Shown in pieces: positions 1,077-38,644 of a stretch of 64,000 bases of DNA. This DNA is from Schmidtea nova (Eukaryota). Where the stretch lies: contig CM097884.1 in the NCBI GenBank assembly GCA_044892505.1, positions 29,202,001-29,266,000 of the forward strand. The letters are read 5' to 3'. Under the pieces are notes generated by a model. That model worked only from the letters and a program-made list of their open reading frames with translations, was not told the DNA's origin and did no database searches. A program made the translations under genes and the position numbers. How positions within the stretch are numbered: the first letter of the stretch is position 1; each line of letters starts with the position of its first letter.

Positions 1077-2987
1077 TACGATAGAAATTAATTTTGTTTG
1101 CAAAAACCTATTATTGGAAATAATATGATGTGAAAAGTCTTGGATTTAAATTATAATATATAAAAATTGTAAAGCTGGAAATTTTATTATTATATAGATT
1201 TTATAAAATTTTTTTTAATTTTAAAATATCCTTTTTTACGTAGAAAAATTATAAATCAAAAATTTTATTGTTGTATGAATTTTTTAAAAATTCCAATATT
1301 AATTTATCTCAATTTATTTAGGAAAATTTATAAATATTAAAATCGGTTACTANNNNNNNNNNNNNNNNNNNNNNNNNNNNNNNNNNNNNNNNNNNNNNNN
1401 NNNNNNNNNNNNNNNNNNNNNNNNNNNNNNNNNNNNNNNNNNNNNNNNNNNNNNNNNNNNNNNNNNNNNNNNNNNNNNNNNNNNNNNNNNNNNNNNNNNN
1501 NNNNNNNNACCAGAAATAATTCATAAAACAATATTAGCAGATTAATACGCACTCATTAAATCACTCATTAACCCTTATGTCTATACATAGTTCTGGGCAG
1601 GCCTTTACCTATTTAAAATGTTGTTTTTTCATTAACACACTTATATGACCCATTCTCACTTCATGATATCCTCAAGCTATATAATAAAATGTGGTGGGTT
1701 GTTGACCGTCAATATGACCTTGACGTCTCTATGGCTCTCATCAACAACTCAACACATAAAACATTGAAATTACCACCTTGCTACCCGTCACTATGTAACG
1801 TTGGTACTGTAACAAGTGGGTGGGTATTCGCAATCAGTGAGCGTCGTCAATACGAAACTATGATTGACCGAATATCTCCTGGGTCCAAGGGCTACCGATG
1901 GAAGGTTTCTTGCCCATTTTGTCCCTTCTTACATGATTTACCTATAAGCTTTCAATACAAATTTTATCAGAAATTTACCTAAATGTTCTACATAACTTTA
2001 GATTTATTATTACATCCAAATAAATTATTTCGAGCATCAAAAACACTAATATAACCCTATTTTTACCAATATTGCATTTTATGATAATTAATACATAAAA
2101 TATTATATTTTTATAGAAAAATTTTAATCTGCATTTGAAATTTAAGAAAAATTTTAATTATTACCGTAATTTAATCCAGTTTAGAAATAATAAAAATAAA
2201 ATTTCCGTTTGTTTAAAATTGCTAATTTAATCAAAAGGACAAATTTACTCAATTTAAAAATTTTATTAATTTTAAAGGTAATTTTCTGAATTTTCTCACT
2301 AAATTGATTAATTAACGATTTTTATAGTTCAGATCAACAAGAAATGGATCTTCCCAGAAACTACGAAGCCAGAGGAAAATTCTCCCACCCCAAATGGGTC
2401 AATCCAATTAGATCTCGAGCTTCTACGAAGCAAAATAGCCCGCTCTACCAACCAAGTAAAATTTTGATTATTTCAGAATTATAATTTATTTTGAACAATT
2501 TTAGAAAATTTCTTGAAGAGAATATGTTGGAACTGGCCCTTCAAGTACTGCAAACCGGAAAAATCCTTGCCGGGGACTCTTATCCCTCAAACTGAATTTT
2601 TTTCAATAAATCTTTAGATAAAAAAAAATTTTTTGTCTTTACTCTTTTTAGTTTGAGTTTTTATTAGTTTTATGAAATTTTTGTAAATTAAAAATAAACT
2701 GTAATGTAAATGGCCTATTTGCCTGGGTATATTCAATTTTATATGGTAGGTTTGAATGATAGAAATTTTTGTATGGTTTTTCTGGATGTATGTTGCCGAC
2801 TAACATAACTGTGTAGAATTTTCAGTATTGTTTGCTTGTGTGTATATAACTATTGAATGCTAATAAATGATACTGTGTATGTGTGTATATTGTATTTTAA
2901 ATATATGTTGCTTGTGTATTAGTATGGGAAATGTTATTGAATGACATGGATGTAATTTTTTGCAAATAGGGATGCATTATGATTTTT

Positions 2988-3120
2988 GNNNNNNNNNNNN
3001 NNNNNNNNNNNNNNNNNNNNNNNNNNNNNNNNNNNNNNNNNNNNNNNNNNNNNNNNNNNNNNNNNNNNNNNNNNNNNNNNNNNNNNNNNNNNNNNNNNNN
3101 NNNNNNNNNNNNNNNNNNNN
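2988..3120. other. N run, probably hard-masked low-complexity DNA (also ~1353-1509, 26032-26184, 26980-27182, 41946-42077)
   Basis: Occurs at the same place with almost the same length in both B LTRs; several runs are flanked by AAT-rich repeats. Confidence 0.7.
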
Positions 3121-4887
3121 AATTTTTATGAAGTAATATAATAATAAAATTTCCAATTTTTATATTATAAATTTTTATAATACTTTTTATAAATTTTAGT
3201 TTTATAATTTTATGAAAATAATACAATAATAAAATTCCTAATTTTTATATTATAAATTTTTATAATGCTTTTTATAATTTTAATAATATAATAATACCAT
3301 TTCTAATTTTTATAATATGAATTTTTATATTCGAATTTTTATATTTTAAGTATATATATATAGTAAAAAAAATTTTCCCTATAGAATTTTGAAATTTTGG
3401 ATTTTTTGAAATAATATTTTCGATTTAAAATTTTTATGGGTTTCAATATAATTTTTGATTTATAAATTCTTAGGAATTTTATAAAATGACAAAATCTTTT
3501 ATATCATAATAATATTCGGAGAATTTTTGGTTCACAATTATTCATTACAAAAATTTTCCAAAAGTAAATTTTTATTTTTTGATCGAAACGAAATTCACAT
3601 AATAATAAATTTTTCATCCATAAATTTCGAAATCTAAATAAGCATCTAATCTAAAAAATTTTATATGCTAAATAAAAATGAAATAAAAATAAGTTATAAA
3701 TTTTTCAACGAATATTTTTAACCTCAAGTAAAGTAAATTTCGGTTTTGTTGAGCATGAATTTCCCAATCAAAGTACACGCGAATTTTTCGGGGCACTTCA
3801 CTTAGGAATTTCAGGCTCTCGAAAAACAAGATTCACTGGAGAAACTTATTTAGACCATAATGAGTTTTAATTCAGATTAAATCAATACTTGTTTCACAAT
3901 TCGTTTTCATTTCAGGAGCATTATTCTAGCTTTGAGCATTATTTCGAACGATTTGCCTTTCATCATTAGCTTCCAATTTTCTTGTGTTTTCCCATAAGAT
4001 GATCGTCGATTGAGAGCGTGAAGGTGAAGGTGAGTACGAGTCGATTTTTAATCAATAATATTTCCTATTTTAGATTTCAAGTCATGAATTAGAAAATGTT
4101 GTGTTATATTACGAAAATGTTTATGTAGATAATAAAAATATACTACTCTATTATAATAAAAATCATTAGTATAACAAAACCTTGCTCTTGGCCAAACCAC
4201 GATTCCCCAGTTGGGATGACGAGAATTTGGATGTATGAGCCTCACCTTAAAGTGGAAATATGGGCTGGCCGATTACCAATCAGACAACGATCCACCCAGG
4301 CTACTAACAGATCCGCACAACTAAGGCTGGACGGATCGTCAGAGGATATGGGAGAAAAAAAAATTTCTTTACTTATTTTCGATAATTTTATTCAAATAAC
4401 TGCTGGTAAACTAATCGTTAGGTAGGGAATTTGTGTCTTATTATGATAATAATAACAAGAAAATTTTTAATAAGAATTGATATTTTAATAATTTCATAAT
4501 AGCAATGTATAAATCCATAAAATAATACATAACAAATTATCAAAGAACGAGGAGTGGAATGATCGTCAGGCATGATGGACGACCATTCCAATCCTCAATA
4601 AAAACAAATATAACATAAGAAAAAAACAATTACTGTTTACGTTTCCTCACGAATTTTGGGAATTAATAAATTCTTCTAAATCGGATTGAAATTCTCTGGG
4701 ATTCTAAAAATCTTCTTGGAAAATAATGAATTCTTCTTAGCTAGAAGCTTTTCAACAGAGTTTTTTCACAATTAAGATGTTGTAAATTAAATTCTAAATT
4801 CTTAATAGAAAAAAATTTTCTTTTTTTTTTTTTCACAAATTCTGAGTTAAAGAAAACGAAAAATTTTTTCACCAAATTCTGAACTCT

Positions 4888-4913
4888 GCCATTTTGATGG
4901 CGGTATATATACC
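4888..4913 (-). promoter_or_regulatory. Putative LTR core promoter: TATA palindrome followed by a YY1-like motif
   Basis: GGTATATATACCGCCATCAAAATGG(C) is conserved in B (also 43844-43869), D (57121-57146) and E (59118-59142) despite diverged flanks. Confidence 0.55.
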
Positions 4914-5514
4914 ATCAAATTTTCTCTATCTCCGGTAGTGCAATAAAACAAATTGTTCTAGAATTTTCTCTTAATTTTTTCTAAATTAATTCTAATGATT
5001 TTCCGAAAATTAATTCCATATTTTTGTATAATAATTTTTTATAAACTATAAATAATTTATTTTAATTAAAAAATTTTTATGTTTGAATCGAAATTTGTTC
5101 GATTTGATTTAATTTATGATTTTCGATCCATATTAATTCTTTCTATTGTTATATGTGAAATTTTGTGATAAATTCACAATTTTCCTCTAGAATTGCGTTA
5201 ATTTTTCTGTACTTGAAGGTTTATGACAAAATTCTGTTCTTTATGGGCATTTTCCATGGGTTTTTTGCCTATTCTAGCTTCCAAACATTCTGCTTTTAAT
5301 TTTTTCCGAGATTTCAGTGAAAATATTTATAAATTCGCAGTTAGCGCTTACTCTACCGGTTGATGTGTTTTGATTCCACTTCACCTTTTGATGTTTTCCA
5401 CTTAATTGTTGGATTTTTAATGGCAGCTAAGGTTAAAAATGGAATCTTGCGCGTTCTCTACCTATGGGGTTATCGCTTTATAAAAACAAATTGCGTTTTG
5501 GCCCAACATAAAAT

Positions 5515-5549
5515 ACTCGGGGGCCCGCAAAAATTGCGTCCCGCAATTT
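5515..5549 (-). other. Conserved hairpin motif at the PPT position of element B
   Basis: AAATTGCG-GGA-CGCAATTT plus GCGGGCCCCCGAGT just upstream of the 3' LTR; the same motif lies at 28953-28985 in A; no polypurine run. Confidence 0.75.
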
Positions 5550-5691
5550 CTCAGAGGGGTTAAGAACCAAGACTAATCAAAGGTCAAAAGGTTGTACATT
5601 ATACACGAGCTACTTGGTCGTGATCATGCCGTTCGCGACAATAAAAATAAAAAGTGATAAAAATTAATAAAAAGTTAATACGTATACAATA

Positions 5692-5850
5692 ATATGAGTC
5701 TACATCGACTCGCAAGCACGAAAAATTAAATGTAATATATGTGCCTACAGCGGCTAATCAAAATTCGATATGAGTCTACAACGACTCGGATAAAAGTTTT
5801 ACGCCTACAGCGGCTAATCAAAGTTCAATATGAGTCTACAACGACTCAGA
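5692..5850. repeat. Three GAGTC-N6-GACTC inverted-repeat units in the 3' region of B
   Basis: gagtc..gactc at 5696-5711, 5772-5787 and 5832-5847, with cctacagcggctaatcaaa repeated between them. Confidence 0.85.
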
Positions 5851-6594
5851 TAAAAGTTTTATAAAGTTCAGTTAAATTGTTTTTATTCTGGAACTTGACG
5901 AACAGTACTGCATTGATTGTTCCATTGCAAATTGATGATTTGTTTCTCGTTTTCTGAGTCGTCTTGGGGATTGTTCCGCTTTGGTTGACATAGTTGACAA
6001 TTCGTTTGGTAATAGAGTGGAGCGATTATGAGATGATTGGGTATGCTCCGTAATGTTTATCCGTTTGGTCTTGATTTGGATCATGTAATTCGGGTTTTTC
6101 GGATGTGACCGCTCGTAACTGGCCATTAGAAGTTCATCATTTGACTTTGTCTATTCTTTCATAGATTATCTGATCTCGATTCATTGGACGATTTTGGTTC
6201 TTGCTTCGAAGGTTTGATTTTTCTCTTGATTGGAGCTTTGTTTTAAGATTCCAGATAGAATTTTCTGGCTTCTTTTTCGCATTATTTCTTTTAATTGTTT
6301 CTTTCAAATTCTTTTGTTTTGACTTAGGTTTCTACTTCAGTAGTTAAATTAGCAACTTTTCCTTTCCACTTTTCTGGGTTGGATTGTTTTGATTTAATTG
6401 GCTTTCTGATTTGTCTGGTCTTGAAGTCTGATAATTTTTGTTGATGTTCGGTCTTTTTATTCTCTGTTTTTTCTGATTTACACAAATATTTTTCTGGCTT
6501 TCCGATTAATTCATTTTTTAATGGCAACTTTTCTGCGAACAAGTTTGACTTTAAATGATCTCTTTAATTTATTTCTACCAGTTTTTTGTTTTTG

Positions 6595-6627
<33 letters not shown>

Positions 6628-6650
6628 ATACAATTAATCATACTTTTATT
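6595..6650 (-). other. AATAAA followed by a genomic A27 tract downstream of the polyprotein stop
   Basis: tttatt at 6645-6650 and a T-run at 6595-6621 on the plus strand. Confidence 0.7.
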
Positions 6651-6806
6651 ATAATATATTTTGTACATTATTTACACTTCCTTTTGTTTGTTACACCAAC
6701 GTCTTCAAACACATTTTTTGATTTTTTGGTGTTTTTCATTATACAATTTTCTCATACTTTTATGATACTATATATTTTATACATTATTTACACTTTGTTT
6801 CGTTTG

Positions 6807-8746
6807 TTACACCAACGTCTCCTGAGGGCCGAAATGTAGGTTTCGCATTCCCCCATATAATTCATTTGTAGTTCGATATATATCTGCTTCTATTATTGAC
6901 GGATTTATCGTTGGTGGTAGTCCTTGCATCCACATTCCATTGAATTCTGATCCATTGCATATCTCATATTCGTCTTCCGTCTTTACTTCTTCTAAACTGA
7001 TTCCATATTCGAACTTCTCGATGCTTGGCCATTGTCTCTTTCTTTTCGTTTTTCTTTTACATCTTCCAGTGATTTTTGCATGTTGTGTGAGAATCAAAAC
7101 CAATATTGCGCCTATTATTCCGGCAGTTATCCATATCATTTTGATTGCTATTTTTGATTCCTCTACTGCTGCTGACATTGTTGTTGGAGATTCCGTTGTT
7201 GTTTGTACGATTTTGATCGGTCTCCCTCCTTGAATTATTCGTTCGGCTTCTTCCTCCGATATATATTTATTATAAACTGTTGGTTTGGTTGTTGTTAGTA
7301 TTTGATCTTCTATACTGAATTCTCTGGTATCGTCTACTCGTCTAGGTAATTTCGAAATAAATTGACATGTTGGATCTTCATTTAATTTTTTGTAGAGGCA
7401 TACCCGGTATTTGGTTCCTCGTTCCCATCCGGCTACATAATATTCCTCTTCTTCAATGAATGATTTTTCTTCTTTATTGCTCACACTTTTACACTTTTCT
7501 TGTTGTAGTTTTACTTCATAAATGCATATTCTAGCAATAAGATGTCCTTGTACGTTCTTGACTTTTATAATATCATTTTGAAAGAATTTTTCGGTTTCCT
7601 TTTGTATTTGGTTTGGAGTGATTGATATTTCTATTTCTTTTCTGTAACCTTTGACTATCGTTGGTTTTTCTGTTACAGTTATTGTTGCTCTCGGGAGTCT
7701 TATTGCTTTTTCATCCGGTTCTCTCCCGCTTTCTGTGCTTGTTATTATTTGTTCTGTCGTGGTGTGTTCTTGACAAATTGGGACGAAAGTTCTCCATATG
7801 CATATTAGATACGTTGTTTTTGATTCTAACTCTTTGATTATCATTTGCTCCTTTCCCTTTACTGACTGTTGATAACATTTGCTAGGGTTGTCAAGCCCAC
7901 TATTCATATCGACCTTTCTCCAACAAACCTTTTTGATTACTTCCTCGTGGTTGTTTATTAGTATTATTTCCGTGGATTTCGTTTCTACTATCAGAGGGTA
8001 ATACGTAGTTGTTCCACTGGTTGTTGTAGTTGTCGTTATGATTTCCTTGGTGAGTTTTTCTAGACATAGTTTTTGTGTCCATATTCTTCTTATGCATATC
8101 GTATAGCTTGTTCTTGGTTTCAATCCTGGTATTCTGAATTTTCCATTTTGGCCTGTCATTTGAAATTTACACGATAATTGTCTGTCCTTATTTTGCATAT
8201 GGATGGTTTTTATCCAACAAATTTGAGTTATAGGCTCTCTCACATTGTTTGTTACCATCATTTCTTTTTCTTTCACTTCTATTGTTGTTTTGTTCTGGAT
8301 CGTCATCATAACCTTTTTATCTTGTTCTTCTTCTTCGTTTTCTTCTTCATTTTCATCTATTGGGGTTTTTGTGACACTTTGTATTTTTTCTAGCTTGTTC
8401 CTCTCGTTTCCCATTTTCGTAATCATTTCTTTAGCTGCACAGATTGCTCTTATTTGATTTGTTCGATATATACATATTATATATATGTTGTTCCTGATTC
8501 GAGTTTTTCGATCTTTTGTTCTTCTCCTATTGCTAATGCTGTTCTTATGCATTTCTGGTGATCACTGACTCCATTTTTCCGTATTGCAACTGTACATATT
8601 TTAATTATTAGCTCTCCTTTGATATTCGTTATCCATATATTTTCTGTATCTGTAACTATTCTTGCCTCTGCTCTCCTCTGATCAAATATATAATCGATTG
8701 CTTTCACCCAATTCAACATTGTCAATAATATTGTCATAATTATTGT
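6807..8746 (-). CDS. C-terminal polyprotein module: signal peptide, four Cys-containing FN3-like domains, Thr-rich stalks and a TM (type I membrane protein); frameshift at ~8485
   Basis: TIIMTILLTMLNWVKA signal-like segment; FN3 F-strand motifs KLESGTTYIICIY, GLKPRTSYTICIR, ELESKTTYLICIW, GWERGTKYRVCLY; TM MIWITAGIIGAILVLIL (7090-7139). An extra TA in the ACATATATATAAT run joins the two track ORFs. Confidence 0.75.
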
Positions 8747-11270
8747 ATTTTTACCTGGATTTTTAAGTAGACATACCGTTCGATTTTCATAGTTGGAATT
8801 TTCTTGTTCATTCTTGTTCTCTTGTTCATCTTCGTTTCCGTTGTTTTTATTCTCCCATTTCTCACTGTTTCCGTGATTTCCGTGATCACTGTTATCATCA
8901 TTTTGCTGCTGTTCGTTGCTATCGTTGTCTTCATCGTCTGGTTTATCGTTTGATTTATCGTCATCGGGGTCGTTTAGATCACCCTCGGTTTCTTTTGAAA
9001 TGTCGTCCTCGACATTTATATCCTTTATTATTTCCCAATACAATTTGATAATTCTTTGTTCATCTAGTTTTATTTCACCCATTTTGCATTTCAATGTTCC
9101 AGCATCGTCGTGAAGATAACTCTTGTCTTTATTTTTGATCTTTTTTCGCCATTCTTTAACCAATTCAAGTAGTTTTTCTCTCTTTGTTTTTATTTTCATT
9201 TCTTCGTTTGGCTTGTTTGTGAATCTGAAATCTGGTCTTTTTAGTAGTGCTTTTGCTACTCTAGGTAATGTCCAATTTTCAATCAAAGCTCGCTCCATTA
9301 ACACGTTTTTATCATATTTGAACTCGTTGTTCACATTCATCAGTCCTTCTCCAGAGAGTGGATCTTTCCATTTTATCATTTTTGAAGCTACTATTTCATC
9401 TTTTCTTATCACTGCCCTTAATAATGGCTTTGGATTTAAACTCAGTATTTCAATGTCCTCTTGACTTGCTTTTGATAAAAGATACTTGGCTATTGTATAA
9501 TAAGGTGATCTGTAGACATATGATAATACAGTTTCATTGTTGTTATCCCTTTCTTTGATACTTGACCCTGTTCTTAATAACTCCTCGATTAAGTCTTTGG
9601 ACCCTCCTTCTTCTACCGCTAGCATTAATGGTGTTTGTCCTTTCCAATTTTTTATATTCGAGTGTTGTCCGCATCTTTCCATGAGTTTAATTATTTCCAT
9701 AGCTCTTTTTCCTTCTCCCTTCCTCAAGGCTACATTTAGCGGTGTTTCCTCGTTAAAATCAGTCATTGTAAATAATATTGGCATCCGCTCCTTGATTATA
9801 TCAATAACTTTTGGTGTTGCCTTTCCTCTGGCATAGTCATCTATTATCCGGTTTAGTCCGTTTATTATTTCGAATACGTGTTTGCCTTCTGTCCATTCTG
9901 GCATAATCTCTTTTGCTGTTTCTATTATCAGATCCATTTCTTTTATATGTTCAATTCTCGCATCATCCGTTATTTCTTGCTTAATTTGTAATGTTGGACT
10001 TCTCATCTTTGGTGCAAAGAATGTTGTATCTCCACAACATCCACATCCTTTACTCTTTCTAAGCATGCATATTTGTCTTGTCTGTGATCTGGTCATTATT
10101 CTCCTTTCCTCTGGTTCTTTTGTCGCAGTTTTTTCTACTCGTTTACATCTACACACGTTCACGTATATCGGTCGAACTAACGGATTGTTGACTAATTTTA
10201 CCCGGATGTTATTTTCGCTAACAAATATGACTTCATATGGTCCTTTTCCCGTTCTCTGTAATTTTTTCGCTGTTCCTGGGATGATTTCTGGTGTTTCGAC
10301 TATCACCCAATCACCTAGCTTGAACTGATTTTCGTGTACATTTCTCTTTTTGTCGTGTAGTTCTTTGTAGCTCTCTTGATTGAATCGTATATTCATACCT
10401 GCAACTTTCCAAATTTCTTGCATTCGCTCCTTGAATTTTGTTAAGTAATCGTCGATTTCCATATATTGTGATATTGGTGGTTGATATTCAAGATCCATTG
10501 GCATGTTACATTCTCTGCCGTACATCAATTTAAACGGACTCATTTTTGTTGCCGAGTGAATCGACATACGGTATGCCATTAGACATAGATTCACATATTC
10601 ATCCCAATCCTTTTGGTGTTTACTGACATAATTTGACATCATCTCAATCAATATTCCGTTAAATCTCTCCGTTTGTCCATTTGTTTGGGGATGATATGGT
10701 GAAGTTCTCAACTTAGCAATTCTGAAATAATTGGTAACTTCGTTGATGATCTCGCTCATAAAATTTGTTCCTTGATCGGTTAATATTTGTTTTGGTGTTC
10801 CATATCTACAACATACTTCTTCGACTAATATTTTGGCTATTGTTCTAGCTTTCTGATCTGGCATTGCAAATGCTTCTGGGAATTTTGTTAAGTAATCAGT
10901 TATTACTAATATATAAACATTTCCATGATTCGTTTCTGGTAATGGTCCTACTACATCCATTGCGATCATTGTCATAGGTTCTGGTGGAATTGGCATTGGT
11001 TTTAAAGGTGTTTTCATTTTACTGCCAGTGCTTTTTCGCGTTGCACATATTAAACAATTCCTAATCCATTCTTTCACATCTTCTCCAATATTTGGCCAGA
11101 AATACTTCTGTTTTAATCTCGCTTCCGTTTTCTTAGCTGACATATGTCCACCAAGTTTTCCATCGTGATATTGCATCAAGATGTCTTTCCTTCTACTTTC
11201 TGGTAAACACATGAGTCTTTTTTCTCCATCCATTGCTAATAACCAGCCTTTTTCGATTGTATATTTGTGC
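8477..11270 (-). CDS. Integrase (HHCC, DDE core, GPY) followed by ankyrin repeats and an acidic linker
   Basis: HDGKLGGH...CLIC zinc finger; MDVVGPLP, TDQGTNF, YHPQTNGQTERFN; GKGPYEV; ankyrins ETPLNVAL, GQTPLMLAV, NETVLSYV (~9450-9750). The frame stays open upstream of the ATG (YTIEKGWLLAM). Confidence 0.95.
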
Positions 11271-14200
11271 CTGTTTTCTCCATATGTTCCTTTAGTTGGC
11301 TGTTATGATCAAAGATTTTCATATCATTCTTATTCAAATATTCGATGATTAGTTTTAGCTCCTCATCTTCATTTTGTTCTTGTTGTAGTTTAGTGAAATC
11401 AATATCTTCTGCGATTATCATACATATTCGCCTGACATCTTTATCCATTAGTTCCTCAAACATAAATCTTGACATGCAATCCGCATTTGCATTCGCTTTC
11501 CCTGACTTGAACTTTATATATGGCGAATATTCTTGTAGCTGCATTGCCCATCTCATTAATCTGCTTGACGCTTCTTTGTGCTGGCCTAACCATACTAACG
11601 GTTGATGATCTGTTGTGATGTATATTTCGTGACCCCATAATAGATATTTGAAATGTTTAATCGCCTGAATGATTGCTAGCGCTTCTCTTTCCGTTACCGA
11701 GTAATTCTTCTCGTGTTTTCGAAAGGTTTTGCTGTAATATCCTATCACTCTTTCTCTCCCATCTTCATCCCATTGTCCTAGTACGGCTCCTGACGCGTAT
11801 CCACTTGCGTCGGTTGCTAATAGAAATGGTTTTTTGAAATCTGGGTGTACTAATATTGGCGATGAAATTAACTTGTCTCGCAACTCTTCAAATGCATTTT
11901 GTTGCTCTCTTTCCCAGATAAATGGTGTATCTTTCTTGACTAGCTCTTGTACAGGCTTTGCAATTCCGGCATAGTTTTTAATAAATTTCCGATAATAACC
12001 ACATAGTCCTAAAAATTCTTGTACTTGGGTTATGGTTTTCGGTATAGGACAATTTTTTATCTTTTCGATATTTCTTGGGTCCGGCTCTTTTCCTTTAGCT
12101 GATACAATGTGACCCAAAAAGGTAACTTTTGGTTTTGCCCAATCACATTTTGATGGTTTCAATTTTAATTTCCATTGCCTTAATCGGATGAATACGTTTT
12201 GGATATCTTGTAGATGTTGTTCAAACGTACCCGAGTAAATCAATAAATCATCAATATATACCATACATTGTTTTATCCCGTGAGTTACAAAATTCATGCA
12301 TCTTTGAAATGACGCAGGTGCATTAGTTAAACCAAATGGCATCTTCTTGAACTGGTACAGATCTTTTCCGATGGTAAACGCTGTTTTCTCTCTGTCCTCT
12401 TCTTTCACTTTAATCTGCCAGTAACCACTTTTCAAATCTAATGACGTGAAGTATGCTGCACCATGTAATGTTTGTAACATTTCGTTGATATCTGGTAACG
12501 GGTATGTATCTCTCTTGGTTACTGCGTTCAATTGTCGATAATCAATACAAAATCGTTGGGTACCATCTTTCTTTTTTACCATTACTACTGGAAATTGCCA
12601 TGGTGAACAACTTGGTTCAATCACATCTGCGTCTAACATCTTTTGCACTTCGGCTTCGGCCACTGCTTTCTGCGCCTCTGCTAGTCGATATGGTCTCAAT
12701 GTGATCGGTGTTTCGTCTGTTAGGGGAATAGTATGTTGAGTTACATCACTCGTTCCCAAGTCTAAATCTGATGCTGCAAAGATGTCTTTAAATTCTAACA
12801 ATACTGTTTTTAGTTTTTCTTTTTCAATCTCGTTTAAAATTTCACTGTCGATTACCCATAACTCTTCCACTTTACTCTCATCCTCTTGAATTTTAGGTAA
12901 TTCAATATTCATCATCGGGGTTAATTTTCCCAATCTCTCATTTTCGTAAATGATTTTGTCTTCCTCATCGAAATTGGTGATGTTGATTGGTATTTCGTTT
13001 TCTTTATTGACGTTCACTATTTCTCTTGCCAATGGTAACTCTTTTCTCATCTCAAAATTTTGATTTGGCTCAAATATCATTTCACCGACTGCCGTGTCTT
13101 TCACTTTGGTGAAACATATCATTTGCGTTCTTCCTGGTACGACAATTTTCTTTGAACACCTTACTTCCGTTTTCATTGAACAGATTTGTCCGCTTTTATC
13201 TTTCAATCTCATCGTACTCAAATCGATAACAATCTCCTTTAATAATTCTGGCATTAAGTCTGTACCAATGATACATGAGGCACCCAATTGTTTTATTACA
13301 GCTAAATAAGTAGACATCTCTACATCTTTATACTTAATATCTGACCATATTTTCCCAATAACTTTGACTGATTCTTTATTGCACGTGACCACATCCATTG
13401 GTGCTTCTTCAATGCAAGGCCATAACATGCCTGGTATCATATTCATGTTTATTGCTGATATATTTGCACCGGTATCTATCATTGCATCCATTTCAACACC
13501 GTTGATTTCAATGGTAATAGTAAGGGTTGGTCCAGCTGATGTTCTCATCATGGCTATTGTCATTGTTTCTAGATTTTTCTCTTCGCTTTGTGGTCTGTTT
13601 AGTATTGTTGGGTCTGGTCTGTTTAGTATTGCCGGGTCAATCATTGCCCAATTTGGTTCGTAATGTGCTGGGTAGAAATTTGGCATTGGTAACATTCGTA
13701 GTCCAGCTCGTGTTTTTTCTCTCACTGTTCCTGGTCTTTGTGGGTTAGGGTATGTCATTGGTGGTAAATTTTGACCTTCCCATTGTTTTGATTTTTCTGC
13801 TTCCCATATTGGTGCGGTACCATTTGATCCGGAGTTCGTTCCTCCTTGATTTCCTTTGTCATCGTTATCACTATCGTCATCATCCGAATCTTTCCTTCGG
13901 TTATCCCACCATCTTTTCCATCCACTACGTCTGGTTTCTTTATATTTCGTTCTCTCTGCTTCGTTTTTCATAATGAATCTAAATTTTCTACCGATCTCTT
14001 CGTCGGTTCCTTTCATCTTGGTCAGTATTCCAATTAACCTCTTTATTCTATGAATGTCTTTTGAATGCCCATGCAATACCATAGTTTTAGCCAAAAACGG
14101 TAGAAATCCAAGTGCCATTTTCCAATTGATTTGTCTCTCTCTTTTATAGATATCAAAACAAGCTAGCATCTGAGTTATAATAACTCTGACTATTTGAATA

Positions 14201-17200
14201 ATTAGGATTATCCCTAATATTCCTGCCATCATCTGTCCAAATACTAAGAATCTTCCCCACATGGCTTTCATCATATTATTGGTTGCGTGTTTAAAATGTT
14301 CTGGTGACAACAATAACTCGTAGTTCGGACTTCCCACGAAATTTGTTCCACCGGTTATGGCTATAATATTTGATAATACTGCTTGTCTTTGGGTTGGAAA
14401 TAGTATATGCTTTCTCGCTGCTTCTAAATCTGCATCTCTGTACACTCCACTGTGTGAAATATCTATGGGTTTAAATTCTATTTCCGTTGTTAACTCTGTT
14501 AATCCAAATCGTTTTGGTGCTGATACAATTTGCCGATTTGGAAAAACTACCCATTTTGCATTTCCCATGTCATACATTGGTCCATACGCATTACTGCAAT
14601 TGAACTGATGGGGTTCGTAATTTGGTGGATTTATTATTCTCGTTACTGCTTGTACAAATCGACTTCTTCCTTTGTAGAATATTTCCAATTCGTTAGTACA
14701 TCGGTTTTCTGGTATTCTTGGTCTTTCCGGTAGTCTTGCTATCTCCTTTTTGCATTTGTATGTATACATAACTTCTCCCACAATTCGACCAAAATGTCCT
14801 TCTTGCAGTGGTAATAGTGGTATTGCGTTATCTGGATTCGTTATAGCCATTGCTAATTTGGTTCTAAAAATTTCTCTGTTCAATAGACAATCGTTTTGTA
14901 TCAAATCATGATATACTTTCTCTGTTGTTGCCATACCTCTATGGTATAAGAAATCCATTTTATTATTAGCGTACAAATACGTTTTTATGTCCACTTTATC
15001 TGGTTTTGGTGTTGCTTCAGCTATCCCTGTTGTAGATAGGAAAATACCTTTGTAATTCGTTTTTATTACTAGTCTTCCGCATTTACTGACGGTTTCACCT
15101 TTTATGAATCTCATTCCTACTCCTGGATCTTTCGATATAATTGCTGTGGGTGTATTTACTAATTTAAGTCTTTCCGTTGTCTCTCTATGCTGGAATGTTC
15201 TTGTTCTTTTGAGCTGTTCCATTTCTTGTCTGGTTGAATCATCTTTGGGCTCGTCATAAACTTTGTCTAGTATTTCCTCGAATTCAGCTTCTTGTAATAA
15301 CATTAGTCGACATTTATTCGCATCTGCCTTATAAATCAATGTTGATGCACCGGTATTACACGAGGTATGTTCTGCAGAACAACTTGGGAATTTTCTCATT
15401 GATAGCGTGTCTGGATCAAAATATCCCGGATATGTTTCCAATTTCACTTGATACATATCTATTACTACTACATTGCTGACCACTTTTCCTAATAGAGTGT
15501 ATGCTCCTCCTTTACAACTTCCGTCTGGTTTATTGACGTATCCAGCTGCATAAACTCTTGTTATTTTAATTGCTCCTGGTTGGGCAGCTATTATTATGTT
15601 TCCTGCTAACGATATCCGTTTTGAGGTAAACGCTTCATTGCACTTTTCGCTATCCAATGATATTACTGTTGATTCCATTCCTGGTTCGATAATTGTTGAA
15701 TATGAATATTGTCCACAGTAATACGCGAATAATTTTCTCGTAACCGTGCATTCTCTTATTTCTGCTTTGATAAGGTCTGATTCCTGATACACGTTGTAAC
15801 TTATTTTATTCACAATTTGTTCCAACTTTTTCGGCGTGGCTTGTTTACAATCTTCCGTATCTTTTAATGAATATTTCTCGCTAAGCTCGATTTTGTCACA
15901 ATCGTATACCACAAACGATGTTGCTCCCTTTATGCACATCATCCAAATTAATATTGTGGTCAATATCGCATTCATACTCTTCCCATATGTTCTTTGATCG
16001 CGAAAATTCATTGATCCTTCGAATTCTGTTAATAATTCTCTCAACTTTACTTGCATGGTTTCCGTTTGATCTATTTTATCTACTGAGTTGATGAATGTTT
16101 TCCAACCTCCTTGTTTCATTACATACGGCTCTATCAGTTTTTCAATGATTTCCGTTATTGTGAATATATGACCATTTGAACTGTATCTGGGTGTCCTCCG
16201 TTTGTACAAGACGATCATATTGTACATTAAATATGCCAAGCTTACTAAATATTTTGCTGGTTCGTTCGTGTTGTTTGTCAGTTTTTCGATAATTTCTTTT
16301 ATTTCTGCAGGATTTCTCAACGTCATTCGTACTTTTCCTTCGATGATTTTTGAGATTATTGGTTTAATTGTTATCCACAGTTGTTTGGCTTCTTGTTGGA
16401 TATGGTCTCTTTTTAACGCTCTTTTTATTTCTGGGTTTGCCAATGCAAGCATATCAGATACTAATTCATTTATCCATCGGATTCCTTGTTCGGTTATTGG
16501 TGTATTACCTTTCACTTGATTTGCAACTGACACTAGTTTGCTTACTTTTAGTTGTAATTGTTCCGTCTTGCTTGTTGGTTTTGGATTTCTTTCTGTTTGA
16601 TCTTTCGCCGGCCTCCCTCTTGGGCGTTTATCTATCATCGTTCCAGCTTCTCGTCTACTTAGCTGATTATTCGCGATTTCTCTCGATGCTGTCGCTCCTC
16701 TATCTGTGATCCAATTACTCCATTCGTCAGTTGTAGAATTTTCTCTTGCTCGTTTTTGTACTTTTTCTCGGTCGGTTTCATCATCGGTTGCTGTGATTTT
16801 TTGCCGTTTTACCCAAGGAATTCTCTGGTCATCGGTTGTTGTTTCATTTTCTATATTTGAGAATAAATCCCCTGAGTAAAATGCTGTTTCATCGTTTTCT
16901 CTATTCGCAATATTTGTCAGTTCTTCTAATACGTCTTCATCAGTTGTTTCGACAATAATTTCACTTGCAGCTTCCGGTATTTCTGGTTCGTCTAAGTTTC
17001 CGAACAATTTTCTCATTTGAGTTCGATTTCCCTCTTTTCTGATTAGTTCATTGCCTGCAATTTTAGAAACAGTTAAATGATTACTGGTTCCGATTCGTAT
17101 CGGGGTTACACCAATTTCTATCTCATCATCGAGTGATCTTCCTTCGTACTGTAGATGAAATGGTAATTCAAATGGCAGTTTCTTTTTAATCTCTTTTATT

Positions 17201-20200
17201 TTCATGGTTGCTAATACTTCCATTTCTTCCTTTCCAAAGTCTGGAAAATGGATTTTTAATCCACATTTTTGTGGTTCGTCACTTTCCCATTCCATTTGCC
17301 TCCATTTTCTTTTAAGCTCATCGAATTGTTCTGGATACCAAGTGTATACTCGTCCATATTCCTCGATTTCCTTCACGAGCATTGTCAATGTTAATCTATC
17401 CTTGCCATTCTCGAGAATCCATTTTGCTAATTCATCTACCGCTCTTCGTTGATTTTTGGCACCTTTTTCTAAAATATCGATTAACTGTCTACTTTTTTGG
17501 GCTTCAGTTCTCTCTAATACTTCAGGGTCCATCAGTTCATCCATATCTACAGGACGTAATCTCGAGGTTGTTTCTTGTTTTCTCAGCACGCTGATTCTGG
17601 GAATTGTCAACTTTTCCCTTACGTCTTCCTCAATTTTGCATGAAACATAAATATCTCCTTCGCTTTGATATCGAGATTTTTTATCTAACAGCAGGTGTTG
17701 CAAGATAAATTTTGGCGCTCCTGATGCTATATTTTCCTCTTTTCCTGGTTTATGATAGCAGCTGCTGAGCTTTTCTGGATAAATTTCTTCACTATGACCC
17801 TTCTCTGAATTGTAGGATGATCCTATAGACAATGTTACTTTTTGATCGAACGGCCATGTTAATTCCTCGTCATTGATCCCTTTACAGATGATATAAAATA
17901 ATGACGTATGAGTTCCTTTACCAACTCCATCTCCGTTTGGATAAATTCTCATTTTTAATTTATATCCGCCTGGGTAAGTGTAAAATTGTGGGCTTGTCAA
18001 TCGCGTTACTTCGCCCTCCTTTGCTGCTCTCACTTTATCTGCCCAATTTGAAATTCTCCATTTGAATGGTGCAAGATATTTCTCCTCGCATATGTTTTCG
18101 TCGACTTCCAAAGGTTTCCCAGTTATTTCTGATGGTTCGTAAATCTCATGGGTTTCCTCATATAACAGTTCCTCAGGTATTCGTTCTGGTTCGCATGTTA
18201 CCCATCTATCCTCCACATTTGGTTGTTCCCATCTGTATCGATTTTCTAGTTCTATCCATGTCTTTATCCACGGCGTTGGTTTACAATCTCCATAATGAAG
18301 AGGTTTTATTTTCCCCTTTATTTCATTATCCGCTCTCCAAAAATTATATAAATCGATTATCTGGTCTAATTTTCCGACCATTTTTCTTTTAAATCTCCTC
18401 ACGTGACCATCGTCTTTCTCTGGTTCGTCCATTGCCCATATTTTGACTGTTTGACCGTCTTCCCAAATACCCAGTTTATATAAGGGTGTCTGATCATCCT
18501 TTTCTAATACATGTTTATTGTACACGATTATTACATCTTCTATTAATCCGTCATCACTATTTTGTTTCACGTTATGCATAATTTTCTCATCGATTATCCG
18601 TATGAATTCGTCTACCGTACAATCTGGTTCTATTTCAATTGTTTGTTCGTCTCCACTTGGCAACGTTAGATTGACTTTTATCGTTTCCGCTCGATTCTTT
18701 GATCTCTGATAGCCGCCATATTGACTTATTAATTCGATTGCTCGTTTATCATCTAATCTCACTAACTCGGTATCTCGTACGAACTCTACAAATCTCTTCA
18801 TTGATGCTGGTCTTCTTCTATTTATACTATCGATCATTTTCCTCGTCTGGTCTATTGCTTGTGTCGAAAGCATTAATCGATTTTCCCATATTGCTTGTTC
18901 GGCCAATTTTAATAATTTTGGTCCGATTTCGTAATCGTATCTATCTCCAATTTTTGTCAGTAGTTTCATCACTGTTTCTTCAATCGCGTTCTTCTTTAAC
19001 GTTAAGGTATTCAACTCGTTCGGCCATATCATAGCATCTACTAGATGTATTCCCTTTTTGATTCGCCAATTATTCAAATAAAGATAATCGTTTTTAAAAC
19101 TGCTACCCATTTTCTCTTGCATCCAGTCATATAATGCGTTAGTATTTGGGTCGTTTATTTTTATTCCTAATACATCGATTTCGGGGTGGTGTACTTCTAT
19201 CGTATACTCTTGAGTTGGCGTTTCTTTTAATTGCTTCTTGTATTCCGCTATTGAGTTGTTCCACTCTGCGGTGAATACTTGATTTTCTACCTGATTTGCT
19301 TGGGTGACTTCCTTCATAAACTTCTGATATACTTTTTCATCAATAAACTCCCGATTCTTCATGGCTAATTCAACCTTGCCTGTTACTTCTCCGATGATAT
19401 TCCAATCGTCTTCACTTAACAACGCGTTGCTTGATGTTTCGGTATCACTTTCTTCGCTAGCCAAAGGTGCTTTTAAATCGTTGTTTTCCTCACTTGACGG
19501 AAATAAGTCACCTCCTAAACTACTTACTTCGCTAATCTCGTCTTCTGGATCTGTTTGATCATCATTTCGCATTCTCATCATATTTATTTTATACACATTT
19601 TTAAGATCTCTTTCTTTTTCCTTTTGCGTTCTTGCTTGTGACCACTTCATTGTTGCGTCCCATCGTTTTCTTTTCAGTGCTTCTACTTCGTCATCTGTCA
19701 ATGTGTTATTCGCTTTTCGAATTGAAGCTTCAATTTTCTGCAGTAGTGCTCGTTGAAGTCGGTTTCTGGTTATAATTTTTTGAGCTTTCTTTGTGATCTC
19801 TTCAACTTCTTCAGTGCTAGTTTTTTTCAATTTCTGATTTAACTTTCCTACTTCATTCGCGACAATAGTTGTTATTTTCTGTTCTATTTCCTTCGCTTTT
19901 ATTTTCACTATTTCTTCCAATTCTTCACAGGTGTTGCAAACATTCCCACTGTCTCTTTTTTCTTTTCTTCTTTGATTATATTCTTGAATGAATATTTTCC
20001 TTTCTTCTTCGTTCATTGATTTCATTGAAACTTCGAATTCTCCATCTTTTTCATTAATCTCTACATCTGGTAACTCTGTTATCATTTCCTTCACTTTTTC
20101 TATTACATTCTTCTGCAATTTACTCATTTCCTCTGGATCTTCTTTATCTTCGCTTTTAACTCTCATCATGTTAATTTGCCTTGTATTATTTCCTCGATTT

Positions 20201-21480
20201 TTCCATCTCTCCTCAATTTCCCGTGCTTCCTCCAACTGAAGTCTCTGCCATTCTGCTTGTTGTTTCGTTTGATTTTTGTTCGTCCTTAACTTGTGAGGCT
20301 CGGTGATTTGCAAAGCATTAATTCTTGGCTGTTGTGGTTGGCTGACTGTTGTTCGTTCGATTAATTCCCTCAGTTGTTCAAGTTCCTGCATCACATTGAT
20401 TTGTGGTGTTTGATTTTGGTTTTCGGTTCGCTGTGGTGCATTGACTTGGTTTGGGCATTCTCTCGCCATATGTCCAGGTTGTTGGCATTTGAAACAATTG
20501 GCGTTTCTTCTAAAATTTCCTCCATTATTGTTATTTCTTACGTAGTAATTTCCTGCACTAGCATTTACGGTTCTGCATACATTTTCTGTATGACCTTTTC
20601 TACCACAACTTTGACATGTTTTAGTGCTATAACATTCATGACTCAGATGTCCAGATTTTTGACAAATGTTACATATTTTGCTGGTGAATAAATTGTTATT
20701 CCCGTAATTATTCCTATTACTATACGCGTTGCTGTAAGTATTGTTATTTCTGTCTGTATTGTTTCGATTACGGTTGTCCATATTTGTATTTTGATTTCTC
20801 ATTGGAGTTTTGAACATTTGTTGCGCTCTTGGTATAAATTGATTCATCATTGGAGTCGTGTTGCCTGGTTGATTACCTTCGTTGGTCGTATTGGTTGTTA
20901 ATTTTGTTGTTGGTTCCGCTGTCAAAACAGCAACTGTCAATGGTGGTTTTAAATACATTTCGCATCGATTCGCGATTGTCAGTGCTTCCTCCAACGTTTT
21001 TGGTGCCTGACATCCGATATTTGCACGAATATCATCTCTTCTGAGTCCACTCAGAAATACTCCTACCAATCCTTCATCTTTTACTTTTTCCTCGCCGTAG
21101 GCATCTCTTGCCATACGTTTTAATTCGCACGCGAACATCGCATTGGATTCGTTGGGTTTTTGTTTTCTGTGGAAGAAATCTAACATTTTCTGATTTTCTT
21201 CTTTCGCCACTCCAAAGGTTTTTTCTAAAAAGTCCTTGATTTCTTTCCATGTTCTCAATTTTTCATCATCTCGTCTTGCCTCTAAATAAACATCTTGTGC
21301 GCTTTCTTTTAAATATAGCGGCATTCGTTCTCGGGTGGCTTCGTCTGACCAGCGACAGATCGTAATATAAACCTCAAATTCCTTTAGGAAGGTTTGTAAT
21401 TTACTGATATTACCATCAAATGGTTCTCCACGGAATTTTTCTTTAAAATCTCCAAGGTTGGCTGCTGACGTGGTACTCAT
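11236..21480 (-). CDS. 3414-aa Gag-accessory-Env-PR-RT-RNaseH portion of the giant polyprotein
   Basis: Uninterrupted ORF with gag CCHC x3, DTG protease (13468-13476), RT ([10 protein letters not shown], YIDD at 12247-12258) and RNase H ([23 protein letters not shown]). Confidence 0.97.
   Translation of the reverse strand: [3414 protein letters not shown]
11480..12720 (-). other. RT and RNase H domains, Ty3/Gypsy type
   Basis: [56 protein letters not shown]; RNase H TDASG/E/D residues. Confidence 0.97.
13230..13530 (-). other. Retropepsin aspartic protease domain
   Basis: [23 protein letters not shown] ... CIIGTDL. Confidence 0.95.
14075..15975 (-). other. Chuvirus-like (gB-related class III) envelope glycoprotein domain
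   Basis: Signal peptide [20 protein letters not shown], then FVVYDC; Cys-rich ectodomain; [16 protein letters not shown]; membrane region [28 protein letters not shown] plus a second hydrophobic stretch, as I recall for chuvirus-type glycoproteins. Confidence 0.75.
16085..16560 (-). other. Bcl-2-like domain 2
   Basis: BH2-like [11 protein letters not shown] at 16093-16125, preceded by a hydrophobic core helix ([16 protein letters not shown]) and a BH3-like helix ([11 protein letters not shown]). Confidence 0.7.
17065..17270 (-). other. Ubiquitin-like domain 3
   Basis: [15 protein letters not shown]...MKIKEIKKK...[12 protein letters not shown]...I..G..NHLTV follows the beta-grasp pattern. 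Confidence 0.6.
17630..18069 (-). other. TRAF-type MATH domain
   Basis: FKWRISNW...[55 protein letters not shown]...G.PKFI...GDIYVSCKI. Confidence 0.92.
18430..18681 (-). other. Ubiquitin-like domain 2
   Basis: [26 protein letters not shown]...[31 protein letters not shown]. Confidence 0.75.
18705..18990 (-). other. Bcl-2-like domain 1 (divergent)
   Basis: BH3-like LTKIGDRYD (18934-18960), BH1-like SMKRFVEFV and BH2-like ISQYGGY, in the expected order and spacing. Confidence 0.55.
18995..19208 (-). other. Possible ubiquitin-like domain 1
   Basis: [19 protein letters not shown]...[10 protein letters not shown]...[30 protein letters not shown]; beta-grasp-like pattern only. Confidence 0.4.
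20450..21480 (-). other. Gag capsid-like domain and three CCHC zinc knuckles
   Basis: [64 protein letters not shown]. Confidence 0.95.
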
Positions 21481-22031
21481 TTTTATCCCTTCTTTCTCCT
21501 CGTCCGAGTTTAAAAATTCTGTGTCGTTCTGGTTAATCTGTTCAATATAATTCCTTTCTACTTCCTCGCTGGTATCAACAGATAAACTTTCCGATGTTGC
21601 AAACTCTGTTTGTTCGGATGAAGGCCTTCTGTTGTGTATTCTTGAAGATTTCGCAGCTTTTCTCTCTCGGTTTTCTAGTAAACTTGGATCTTTGTCTAGA
21701 TTTGGATCTTTGTCTTGATTTTTACGCTTTAACAGCCGCTCTGCGATACTCTCAATATCCTCTGTTTTGTCAATTGTTGATTATTTCTCTTACGGTTAGA
21801 TTCTCTTTTATATTTTTCTTCTTTTACTTCTTTCCTCTTCAATGAGTCTTCTTTTTCTTCTTTTTCTTCCTTTATTCCTTTTTTCAAAACTGATTCACTT
21901 GAATTTGATGGTTTTGGTTTTGGTTTGATGTTATCTAAAAATATAAAAAAAATGGATCCATTTATAATTAATTTGTTCGTCATTTTAGGCTTCTTCCTCT
22001 TTCCCACCGTTCCGACATCGTCGCTACTCAC
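21481..22031 (-). pseudogene. N-terminal Gag extension with a candidate 97-nt intron
   Basis: The gag frame is open 100 codons upstream of ATG 21480 (to TAA at 21781-21783). Donor GG|GTGAGT at 22031; acceptor TTTTTAG|AT at 21935. Confidence 0.5.
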
Positions 22032-22439
22032 CCCCCGTAATTTAGGTGGATTTTAATTTATCTATACCTCGTAATAATTATCTATGTAGGGTCGTATGGT
22101 TTACCTGGTACCTTCATCAATAATAATAACGATAATAATAATAATAATACTAATTATAATAATAATTTGCACAAAATTTCACGTAACATAACTCTAATAC
22201 TTCGTTTCAAAATCATGATTTTCACAAATACTTTATTTATTTATTGTCGTCGTTTTCTTTCAGATTTTCTAATGTTTCCAGCTAGCTTTTTATAATATTT
22301 CTTAACGGATGTTACAATTCTTACGCTGTCATTTTATCCTATTTCTCCTAGATGTACCTTCTTTAATCTCTTTTTACTAACTCCCATTTTCTCAAAATGC
22401 ATTTTATTTCTTCTACGAGCTCTCAAAATTTCTCACATG

Positions 22440-23530
22440 CATGAATTTCTAAATATTTTTGGATTCTCAAAGTCTCTCATACATGAACTCTCAAAGTTTC
22501 TCAATTATCTGGACTCTCAAAGTCTCTCATACATGAACTCTCAAAGTTTCTCAATTATCTGGACTCTCAAAGTCTCTCATACATGAACTCTCAAAGTTTC
22601 TCAATTATCTGGACTCTCAAAGTCTCTCATACATGAACTCTCAAAGTTTCTCAATTATCTGGACTCTCAAAGTCTCTCAATTATCTGGACTCTCAAAGTC
22701 TCTCCCAGAGCGCTCAATTATCTGGACTCTCAAAGTCTCTAAATTACCTGGACTCTCAAAGTCTCTCAATTATCTGGACTCTCAAAGTCTCTCAATTATC
22801 TGGACTCTCAAAGTCTCTCACATACATGAACTCTCAAAGTTTCTCAATTATCTGGACTCTCAAAGTCTCTCACATACATGAACTCTCAAAGTTTCTCAAT
22901 TATCTGGACTCTCAAAGTCTCTCACATACATGAACTCTCAAAGTTTCTCAATTATCTGGACTCTCAAAGTCTCTCACATACATGAACTCTCAAAGTTTCT
23001 CAATTATCTGGACTCTCAAAGTCTCTCACATACATGAACTCTCAAAGTTTCTCAATTATCTGGACTCTCAAAGTCTCTCACATACATGAACTCTCAAAGT
23101 TTCTCAATTATCTGGACTCTCAAAGTCTCTCACATACATGAACTCTCAAAGTTTCTCAATTATCTGGACTCTCAAAGTCTCTCACATACATGAACTCTCA
23201 AAGTTTCTCAATTATCTGGACTCTCAAAGTCTCTCACATACATGAACTCTCAAAGTTTCTCAATTATCTGGACTCTCAAAGTCTCTCACATACATGAACT
23301 CTCAAAGTTTCTCAATTATCTGGACTCTCAAAGTCTCTCACATACATGAACTCTCAAAGTTTCTCAATTATCTGGACTCTCAAAGTCTCTCACATACATG
23401 AACTCTCAAAGTTTCTCAATTATCTGGACTCTCAAAGTCTCTCACATACATGAACTCTCAAAGTTTCTCAATTATCTGGACTCTCAAAGTCTCTCACATA
23501 CATGAACTCTCAAAGTTTCTCAATTATCTC
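22440..23530. repeat. Tandem array in B's leader, 50-52-nt unit, about 20 copies
   Basis: Unit catacatgaactctcaaagtttctcaattatctggactctcaaagtctctca, a dimer of two related 26-mers. Confidence 0.97.
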
Positions 23531-23693
23531 GGCCGTCTTCAATTTATTCTCTTCATACTATTTAATCACTCATTTTCCTATTCTCAATAAATTCGCTGTT
23601 ACTGACTGTTTTTCTCAGATTGTTCTACTACTTCTCAATTATGAATTCATCAGGGTAAAATCGTCGAAATTCACTTTCTACTCTTTCGACTTT

Positions 23694-23960
23694 CTAGAAT
23701 CTGCATCTAATTTTCTCAGCAGCTTTCTCTTTATTAATGTTACTGCCTTCTACCTCAGTGTACCAATCATGCCTTGGCAAACTGGTGTATAAGACGAACA
23801 TTACGGGTTTAGCCCTTTCACCTAATTCAAAATCGTAAAATAATCGCGTTAACTCGTTTCGCAATTTGTGATGATCAGTCACAAACGAAATTTCGCCAAC
23901 ATATGCGATGGATATCCTATTCTACTCTCTTTCCTCAAGGTGATCAAGTTTTTCCCCGTT
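23694..23960 (-). pseudogene. Degenerate leader ORF of B, apparently homologous to 36245-36439 in A
   Basis: Manual translation gives ...ISIAYVGEISFVTDHHKL vs GTIAEAGKFLRVTDHHTI in A. Confidence 0.45.
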
Positions 23961-26226: not shown

Positions 26227-26257
<31 letters not shown>

Positions 26258-38230: not shown

Positions 38231-38620
38231 GCAATCTAACCATCCGTTTTTAGGTATAATTTAATGTCTGCTTGTTCTACCATTAATTCATTGTAACACG
38301 AATCATCCTACTAAATTCAACGACATTCATACCATACAGCTCTTAATATTTGTTTTGTACTGTAATTTACTGTTAACTTATTCAACTATCAATCTGAATG
38401 CTATTCATTATCCTTACAATGTTATTACTTGCCTAGTCACTCCCCATCAACTATTGCTTCGCTTTCCTTAATATAATCACTTTCATCTCGCGGGAGAACG
38501 CACTCTTTTTCATTTTATTTTTATTTTTACACATAAAAATTGCTATCAATTCCGGCTAATTATGCACGACAAAACTCTTTCTTTATGTTTGTTTTTCACT
38601 TTCCCCATAAAACTACTTTC

Positions 38621-38638: not shown

Positions 38639-38644
38639 AATTTA

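Follow-up and report, generated by a model that had tools for sequence, protein, structure and literature searches.

The locus examined here raises the question of what kind of membrane protein a giant planarian LTR element carries downstream of its integrase, and what that protein might do. Within the window (the whole stretch of Schmidtea nova DNA that was analysed, 64,000 nucleotides), a sequence-only reading had picked out a Cys-rich module on the minus strand at 8746-6807; it placed the module in the canonical env position, denied that it was a fusogen and suggested either an attachment protein paired with the class III fusogen, or a receptor decoy or superinfection-exclusion factor. The elements concerned, known as Burro, have already been published; the FN3 surface module is a real and conserved feature within this known family, and its architecture is well supported.

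The module belongs to a complete LTR element on the minus strand, as do all of its features given below. The element spans 1692..44464, which amounts to ~29.6 kb when a nested element of ~13 kb is subtracted, and it is bounded by a 4-bp target-site duplication. Its 5' LTR (40649..44464, with TG...CA ends) and 3' LTR (1692..5508) each measure ~3.8 kb and are 99.7-99.8% identical over their unmasked blocks. The 5' part of the polyprotein (11236..21780), whose frame is closed by a frameshift in the window copy, encodes Gag through RNase H, and the complete order of the Pfam matches is Gag, CCHC knuckles, MATH (E 1.5e-23), Monjiviricetes (class III) fusion protein, protease, RT, RNase H, integrase and ankyrin repeats (Ank_2, E 1.6e-13). 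The Env portion consists of a first internal signal and a Monjiviricetes-type fusion-protein ectodomain (14257..15975; PF24664, E 4e-69) followed by a TM (~14176-14220); it lies in frame, with the Gag and MATH matches on one side and the protease match on the other.

Giant gypsy-like elements of planarians, called Burro or GYPSM1, are described in PMC6431247 (citing Jurka 2007 and Grohme 2018). The main text of that article gives them a length of ~30 kb, long LTRs and one ORF of ~4,900-5,100 aa, with Gag, MATH and Env in frame before protease, RT-RNase H-integrase and ankyrin repeats. Since the size, the multi-kb LTRs, the single ORF (4,992-5,010 aa in intact copies, see below), the in-frame Env between Gag and protease and the MATH and ankyrin cargo all match this description, we assign the window element to the Burro type: it is a young, high-copy Ty3/gypsy element, whose family we call A. 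With respect to two further Burro domains, a BCL2-like one before Env and a Ubi2/SUMO-like one, family A gave no Pfam or PDB sequence match, and the related family D (see below) gave a weak Rad60-SLD match (E 0.022). A GGW-containing helical domain, again with no Bcl-2 match at the sequence level in family A, lies at ~15975-16100, directly before the Env signal; given this placement, the Env signal could tail-anchor the published Bcl-2-like domain. Family A has neither a BIR domain nor an accessory ORF 3' of the polyprotein.

In the window copy the module begins with a predicted internal signal peptide (8708..8764), which has a basic n-region, a weak h-region of ~12 residues (11-residue KD 2.4) and small residues at -3/-1; it was judged by eye and hydropathy, and the Met at 8746 lies inside this short hydrophobic segment. 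There follow FN3-like repeat 1 (8412..8707), an acidic linker (8316..8411), FN3-like repeat 2 (8040..8315, the best Pfam fn3 stretch), a Thr run (8007..8039, 82% Thr/Ser), FN3 repeat 3 (7752..8006), FN3-like repeat 4 (7341..7619), a membrane-proximal stalk (7146..7340, 23% Thr/Ser), a transmembrane helix (7083..7145, 19-residue KD maximum 2.44) and, up to and including the polyprotein stop codon, a cytoplasmic tail (6807..7082) with a basic stop-transfer cluster and a hydrophobic C-terminus. The signal-like segment, the four Cys repeats, the Thr-rich linkers, the single TM and the tail of ~90 residues that had been described earlier are all present (the tail has 91 aa, with four Tyr including that of a YEIC motif), and they form the expected type I membrane layout. 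Each of the four ~90-residue repeats has four Cys, for 16 in the ectodomain, and from their positions two disulfides per repeat may be envisaged. Repeat 4 departs from the L.p.T.Y.IC portion of the per-repeat motif that had been proposed and reads WERGTKYRVC. Local alignments of the six repeat pairs gave Z values of 3.4-14.5 against 1000 shuffles, with no shuffle reaching the observed score in four of the pairs and 2/1000 and 6/1000 doing so in the other two; at the level of sequence, the four repeats are thus related to each other beyond chance. A duplication of ~106 bp (6599-6704 and 6714-6820, 83% identical, with three units apparent in some copies) overlaps the polyprotein stop.

The claim that the repeats fold as FN3 domains could be followed at several levels of sensitivity. 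Pfam fn3 scored 27.5 bits (cut-off 25) over the whole module of a natural copy (L002); it stayed below the cut-off for single repeats and for the modules of families B and C (see below), and it matched at all, taken repeat by repeat, only two of the 17 members of our alignment, which combines repeats from four families. When the profile of these 17 repeats was compared with the PDB, FN3 proteins were among the top matches, all of them weak (Tie2 at E 0.057, fibronectin, tenascin). The AlphaFold2 model of repeat 3 made from the same alignment is a seven-strand sandwich (pLDDT 73, pTM 0.62). For this model Foldseek places FN3 domains and monobodies at the top of its PDB matches (best E 9.5e-4), and the top VIA matches are all FN3 (best Z 9.1, rmsd 3.1, 84 residues aligned). 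The model thus indicates that repeat 3 adopts the FN3 fold, as had been foreseen, and by homology to it repeats 1, 2 and 4 are probably FN3-like; a single-sequence AlphaFold2 run on the whole ectodomain gave a pLDDT of 31. A Trp in strand B is a conserved hallmark of FN3 domains, and a Trp near this strand is found in one of the four family A repeats, which are divergent FN3s. Because the VIA matches tie among FN3 domains of cytokine receptors, Dscam, fibronectin and phosphatases, they single out no class of donor, and FLRT/LRFN chains were not among the 50 matches listed by Foldseek (PDB) and VIA. In BFVD the repeat model gave nothing at E<=0.001; the top matches were proteins of large DNA viruses and phages, several annotated as FN3, and no retroelement protein was among the matches listed. 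Unlike the canonical env of errantiviruses, which is a separate fusogen ORF following pol, this module has an FN3 fold, is in frame with integrase and ankyrin repeats and shows no fusogen match in Pfam.

The reading frame that leads into the module is that of the integrase. A single frame at 8477..11302 covers the integrase, the ankyrin repeats, an acidic linker, the second signal and the first two thirds of FN3 repeat 1, with no stop codon between these parts; as the frame runs uninterrupted from integrase to module, the latter is the end of the polyprotein rather than a free-standing ORF. The canonical env position originally ascribed to the module is correct inasmuch as nothing coding stands between it and the 3' LTR, but not if env is taken to mean a separate ORF. 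The window copy itself has two frameshifts, one near 8480 (inside repeat 1) and one near 11270 (at the RNase H/integrase boundary), so that in this copy 8746-6807 cannot be read as one frame. Other copies are open, and the breaks of the window copy are absent from most of them. Of 737 candidates in a DNA search, the 40 that were scored are all full-length at ~100% identity. From the 2,631 candidates of a protein search with repeats 2-3 we scored 150, counting the classes by hand: open frames of 4,992-5,010 aa hold 62 and frames of 1,346-1,350 aa hold 34, seven (the window included) are in frames shorter than the module, and one has a stop inside the match. All 20 fetched copies finish with the 642-aa module, with at most one substitution each, and in 28 of 30 checked copies no break interrupts the frame between a point 499 codons upstream of repeat 2 and the stop, these three sets (150, 20 and 30) being overlapping and drawn from the best-scoring copies. 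This makes the module the C-terminal end of a single polyprotein of ~5,000 residues, not a separate env-like gene. Its absence or decay in most copies had been named as an outcome that would speak against it; what is seen instead is a module kept open in nearly all of the 30 copies and retained by two distant families.

The class of ~1,350 aa is a high-copy deletion subfamily of family A (L013, L015, L017, L019, L028, L032). Its members have lost Gag, Env, protease, RT, RNase H and the N-terminal part of the integrase (window equivalent 22017 to ~10950) and keep a frame of ~1,350 codons with the ankyrin repeats and the whole FN3 module. The same deletion junction, decayed and not a clean splice, is common to all six copies examined. 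The module of this subfamily is identical to that of the full-length form, and the rest is homogenised with the full-length elements.

How might a surface protein be released from so long a polyprotein? Four hydrophobic segments are seen along it (the Env signal, the Env TM, the second short h-region and the module TM), and the chain would accordingly cross the ER membrane four times, at signal 1, Env TM, signal 2 and module TM, which would keep Gag and Pol on the cytosolic side and place both Env and the FN3 repeats in the lumen. The viral protease could then cleave ~13 residues ahead of the second h-region, and signal peptidase behind it, which would free a type I surface protein produced in a 1:1 ratio to the Env fusogen from the same polyprotein. 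Analogous protease and signal-peptidase cuts occur at the flavivirus capsid-anchor junction. The putative viral-protease site (8765..8779) is a short motif, defined post hoc, that also occurs at the borders of protease, RNase H and integrase. This five-residue motif occurs 11 times (window positions 20937, 20403, 20325, 20178, 19590, 17598, 13560, 13188, 11430, 10075 and 8779) against ~1.2 expected in shuffles, the pattern having been drawn from these same sequences, and its recurrence at or near domain borders is likely to be a map of protease cleavage. Before the signal it is present in family A and had no match at this site in B or C. The small residues at -3/-1 after the h-region are found in A, B and C and, by eye, fit signal-peptidase cleavage. 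It seems unlikely that a dedicated mRNA, spliced or subgenomic and beginning at Met 8746 like that of a canonical env, is the main source of the module. In family A a CAG does stand 17 nt ahead of this ATG, but the sequence before it is A-rich with no pyrimidine tract, a spliced junction at the signal is present in none of 30 copies, and the frame is open from Gag to the stop in the 62 long copies mentioned above. In family B, moreover, no Met is suitably placed: its h-region is preceded by ~110 residues without one, and an internal signal is thereby favoured.

Families B (5,140 aa) and C (5,147/4,118 aa) were found in the same genome through their related Gag. Both of their polyproteins end like that of family A, with a signal, four Cys-FN3 repeats, a TM and a tail, at module identities to A of 24% (B) and 21% (C), and all three of the full-polyprotein families examined have module and Env together. 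The main text of PMC6431247 mentions a Burro-like ORF1 of 5,140 aa, a length equal to that of the family B polyprotein, without MATH and with an accessory ORF upstream. In our families B and C there is no MATH match in the polyprotein and a TRAF ORF lies downstream (L063:8498-9901, L067:8335-9816, L075:5706-6809); family C also has a 368-aa ORF of no known family. For the module we obtained dN/dS values of 0.22-0.23 among the three family B pairs, 0.12-0.28 among 21 non-independent pairs of family C and, at a dS of ~1.1-1.2, 0.26-0.27 between B and C; each repeat and the TM plus tail, taken separately, gave 0.20-0.35. In B and C the module is thus under purifying selection. Between A and C, identity falls from 92% in RT and 87% in integrase through 49-50% in Env and 30% in the ankyrin region to 21% in the FN3 ectodomain, which makes the FN3 module the fastest-diverging folded part among those compared. 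The tails of A, B and C have in common a WPxI motif and a hydrophobic last residue. Their Tyr counts are 4, 3 and 0, respectively; the several tyrosines that the sequence-only reading saw in the tail are therefore not a conserved feature, and tail-Tyr signalling as a property of the families is rejected.

The Env-less family D retains protease, ankyrin repeats, a weakened signal-like segment and one FN3 repeat with no TM. Its signal plus repeat have a dN/dS of 0.2-1.4, compared with 0.12-0.47 in its own ankyrin region, and a Cys is lost in four of seven copies; this remnant of the module is decaying under relaxed constraint. Family D (L079-L090, e.g. L080:852-9899 and L089:431-4775) is also RT-less and multi-ORF, and has at least 150 copies. 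Its ORFs encode a RING protein, a protease-ankyrin-single FN3 protein, a full TRAF and an IAP, and there are further signal-plus-TM ORFs of 275 and 297 aa and one of 484 aa with an EGF-like Cys pattern (by eye, L083). A Gag-only family showed no module at two loci or in the nested window copy.

The module resembles animal FN3 receptors that have a Cys in the F strand, with which it shares the fold and the FN3-TM-tail order; its Y-x-x-C strand F aligns with Tie2 in the weak profile match mentioned above, and family B has a weak Fn3_ELFN match (E 0.078). It is unlike such receptors (Tie2, LRR-FN3) in its four tandem 4-Cys repeats, in having no LRR, Ig or kinase, and in having no significant sequence match to them. 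Word-indexed searches gave no relatives of the module at E<=0.01, either with a single sequence among longer proteins or with the three-family alignment among proteins of near and shorter lengths. Against 1.84 billion representatives phmmer returned one match, P0001 (E 2e-5); this bacterial-type repeat protein matches a short E/F-strand motif only, through chance or convergence, and was rejected as a relative. The phmmer search of the PDB with the window frame gave a weak match to RAP2A only. In the host genome Pfam fn3 has 92 matches; a scan of 50 host fn3 loci with the 17-domain profile gave a best E of 0.018, without the 4-Cys pattern, and the Fn3_ELFN search of the genome gave four matches, all sub-threshold. 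The LRR-FN3 receptors, which include FLRT, LRFN and ELFN, had been proposed as the donor; the 50 loci and the Fn3_ELFN search, which could miss exon-split or divergent donors, yielded no convincing match. Repeated clusters of host FN3 exons (G000 C2:83-85 Mb and C1:428-432 Mb) suggest expanded receptor families; loci sampled from these clusters did not match the Burro FN3 profile.

What, then, is the module for? It is hardly credible that it is a neutral passenger amplified with a young element. Among the 20 family A modules 11 of 13 single changes are non-synonymous, as in post-insertion drift, but this reading is largely refuted by the dN/dS of 0.12-0.28 in B and C; architecture and Cys pattern alike have been kept across a saturated synonymous distance. 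To the proposal that the FN3 protein is an attachment or adhesion factor, helping enveloped particles to reach neighbouring cells alongside the class III fusogen, we would give an even chance. It draws on the fact that the intact module tracks with Env in all three full families, decays in D and diverges fastest while constrained, and the fastest divergence among the folded parts is what one would expect of a host-facing ectodomain. That the protein serves attachment rather than acting on host cell signalling is nevertheless the least certain part of the explanation. Two things count against it. The cargo of the elements includes TRAF/MATH, IAP and ankyrin, and further membrane-protein ORFs exist in family D, which together suggest a general host-manipulation toolkit. 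The Env-less deletion subfamily of A, moreover, keeps the whole module open, although the identity of this module to the full-length form means that the subfamily can be read neither for nor against attachment.

The main rival, which we consider possible but doubtful, is a captured receptor mimic: an FN3 protein on the producer cell that soaks up a ligand or damps down signalling in immunity or cell death, in concert with the TRAF/MATH, IAP, Bcl-2-like and ankyrin cargo. The TRAF ORFs downstream in B and C and the IAP/TRAF/RING cassette of D would suit such a role, as would Env-less derivatives that keep the module whole (the A deletion) or in part (D), and a tail that is under purifying selection (dN/dS 0.20), with its WPxI common to the families and its hydrophobic C-terminus. 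The Burro1 IAP, moreover, is reported in PMC13465017 (citing Lee et al. 2026) to protect stem cells. The tail tyrosines, however, are unconserved, with none in family C; the remnant in D is decaying; and no host donor was identified among the loci scanned. Class I cytokine receptors have a WSxWS motif and a Pro-rich Box1. There is no WSxWS in A, B or C, and the Box1-like motif is half present (a WPxI without the following PxP), so that the modules do not qualify as class I cytokine receptors of the gp130/Domeless type, and a Domeless-like decoy is disfavoured. In addition, STAT is reported as not detected in Platyhelminthes in PMC13203501, which contradicts itself on JAK. It is very unlikely that the FN3 protein acts in superinfection exclusion by occupying or down-regulating the receptor used by the fusogen. 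Its surface location and co-expression with Env would be compatible with this, and the fast divergence between families could give family-specific exclusion; there is, however, nothing specific in favour of it, in retroviruses exclusion is usually the task of Env itself, and at least 150 near-identical copies give no hint of a strong effect. The comparative pattern as a whole leans modestly towards attachment over a decoy.

Taking attachment as the preferred role, we would tentatively propose, at somewhat less than even chances, that the planarian Burro elements belong among endogenous viruses and enter cells by means of two components. One would be a class III fusogen acquired from a lineage of negative-strand RNA viruses, the other an attachment protein made out of an FN3 domain captured from an animal; a single four-pass polyprotein, of which Gag and Pol are also part, would yield both by cleavage. 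The FN3 protein, with its fast divergence, would then determine the cells, and perhaps the species, open to each family. Two-component entry is familiar from herpesviruses (gB with gC/gD) and paramyxoviruses (F with H/HN/G), which likewise combine a fusogen with a faster-diverging type I or type II surface protein. The analogy is one of function only and involves neither sequence nor fold, the pairing is putative, and unlike in those viruses both proteins would come from a single Gag/Pol-containing polyprotein. Env-bearing retrotransposons are, to our knowledge, known with one envelope protein. If the proposal is true, a second conserved surface protein of host type from the same polyprotein would add a new layer to the way in which Ty3/gypsy elements become virus-like. 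It would also be a candidate determinant of tropism for elements that take up much of planarian genomes and show activity in stem cells, and it would provide a defined antigen and an RNAi target with which their possible spread from cell to cell could be addressed.

As listed in PMC6431247, the Burro/GYPSM1 elements have no FN3 domain, second signal or second TM, and in the main text of that article (its figure apart) neither "fibronectin" nor "FN3" occurs; the module thus annotates ~640 residues left unexplained in the readable Burro literature. The GAG-ENV-POL errantiviruses of HSV/gB type from Platyhelminthes, Nematoda and Bryozoa (Chary and Hayashi, PMC13524379) share with family A a Ty3/gypsy pol, a class III fusogen before pol and multicopy intact elements, and six of them, with spans of 14.5-18 kb, are given for Schmidtea mediterranea. 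In the text and seven supplements of that work, taken without the figures and with the long cells only in part, neither of the two terms occurs and no second surface protein is mentioned. Our literature search met no description of FN3 domains in Burro elements or errantiviruses; the maps and supplements of Lee et al. 2026 (Dev Cell), Grohme et al. 2018 and Jurka 2007 may already annotate them.

Several other features of the window deserve mention. Public contigs (runs X1-X4), which come from a single study and from three organisms with different codes, span the module over window 6500-11300 with ~98-99% identity at low depth, and variants are common to the X1, X2 and X4 contigs; recent transfer between hosts is a possible explanation, as is labelling or contamination. 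A PBS-like 18-mer (~40620-40640), which we take to resemble tRNA-Pro sites, lies 9-10 nt inward of the 5' LTR end, and the 5' leader has a 26/52-bp tandem array (22410-23660) whose length varies between copies. The nested LTR element (~27210-40386) has LTRs of at least 1.7 kb that are 100% identical; it belongs to a high-copy family with a Gag-like frame of ~1,020 aa in other copies and no FN3 or Env match, and within it is a 56-bp tandem array (~34600-35970). Finally, outside the Burro element, the ORFs at 45948-48002, 45182-45574 and 53734-54642 look by eye like hAT, piggyBac-like and ISXO2/Merlin-like transposases.
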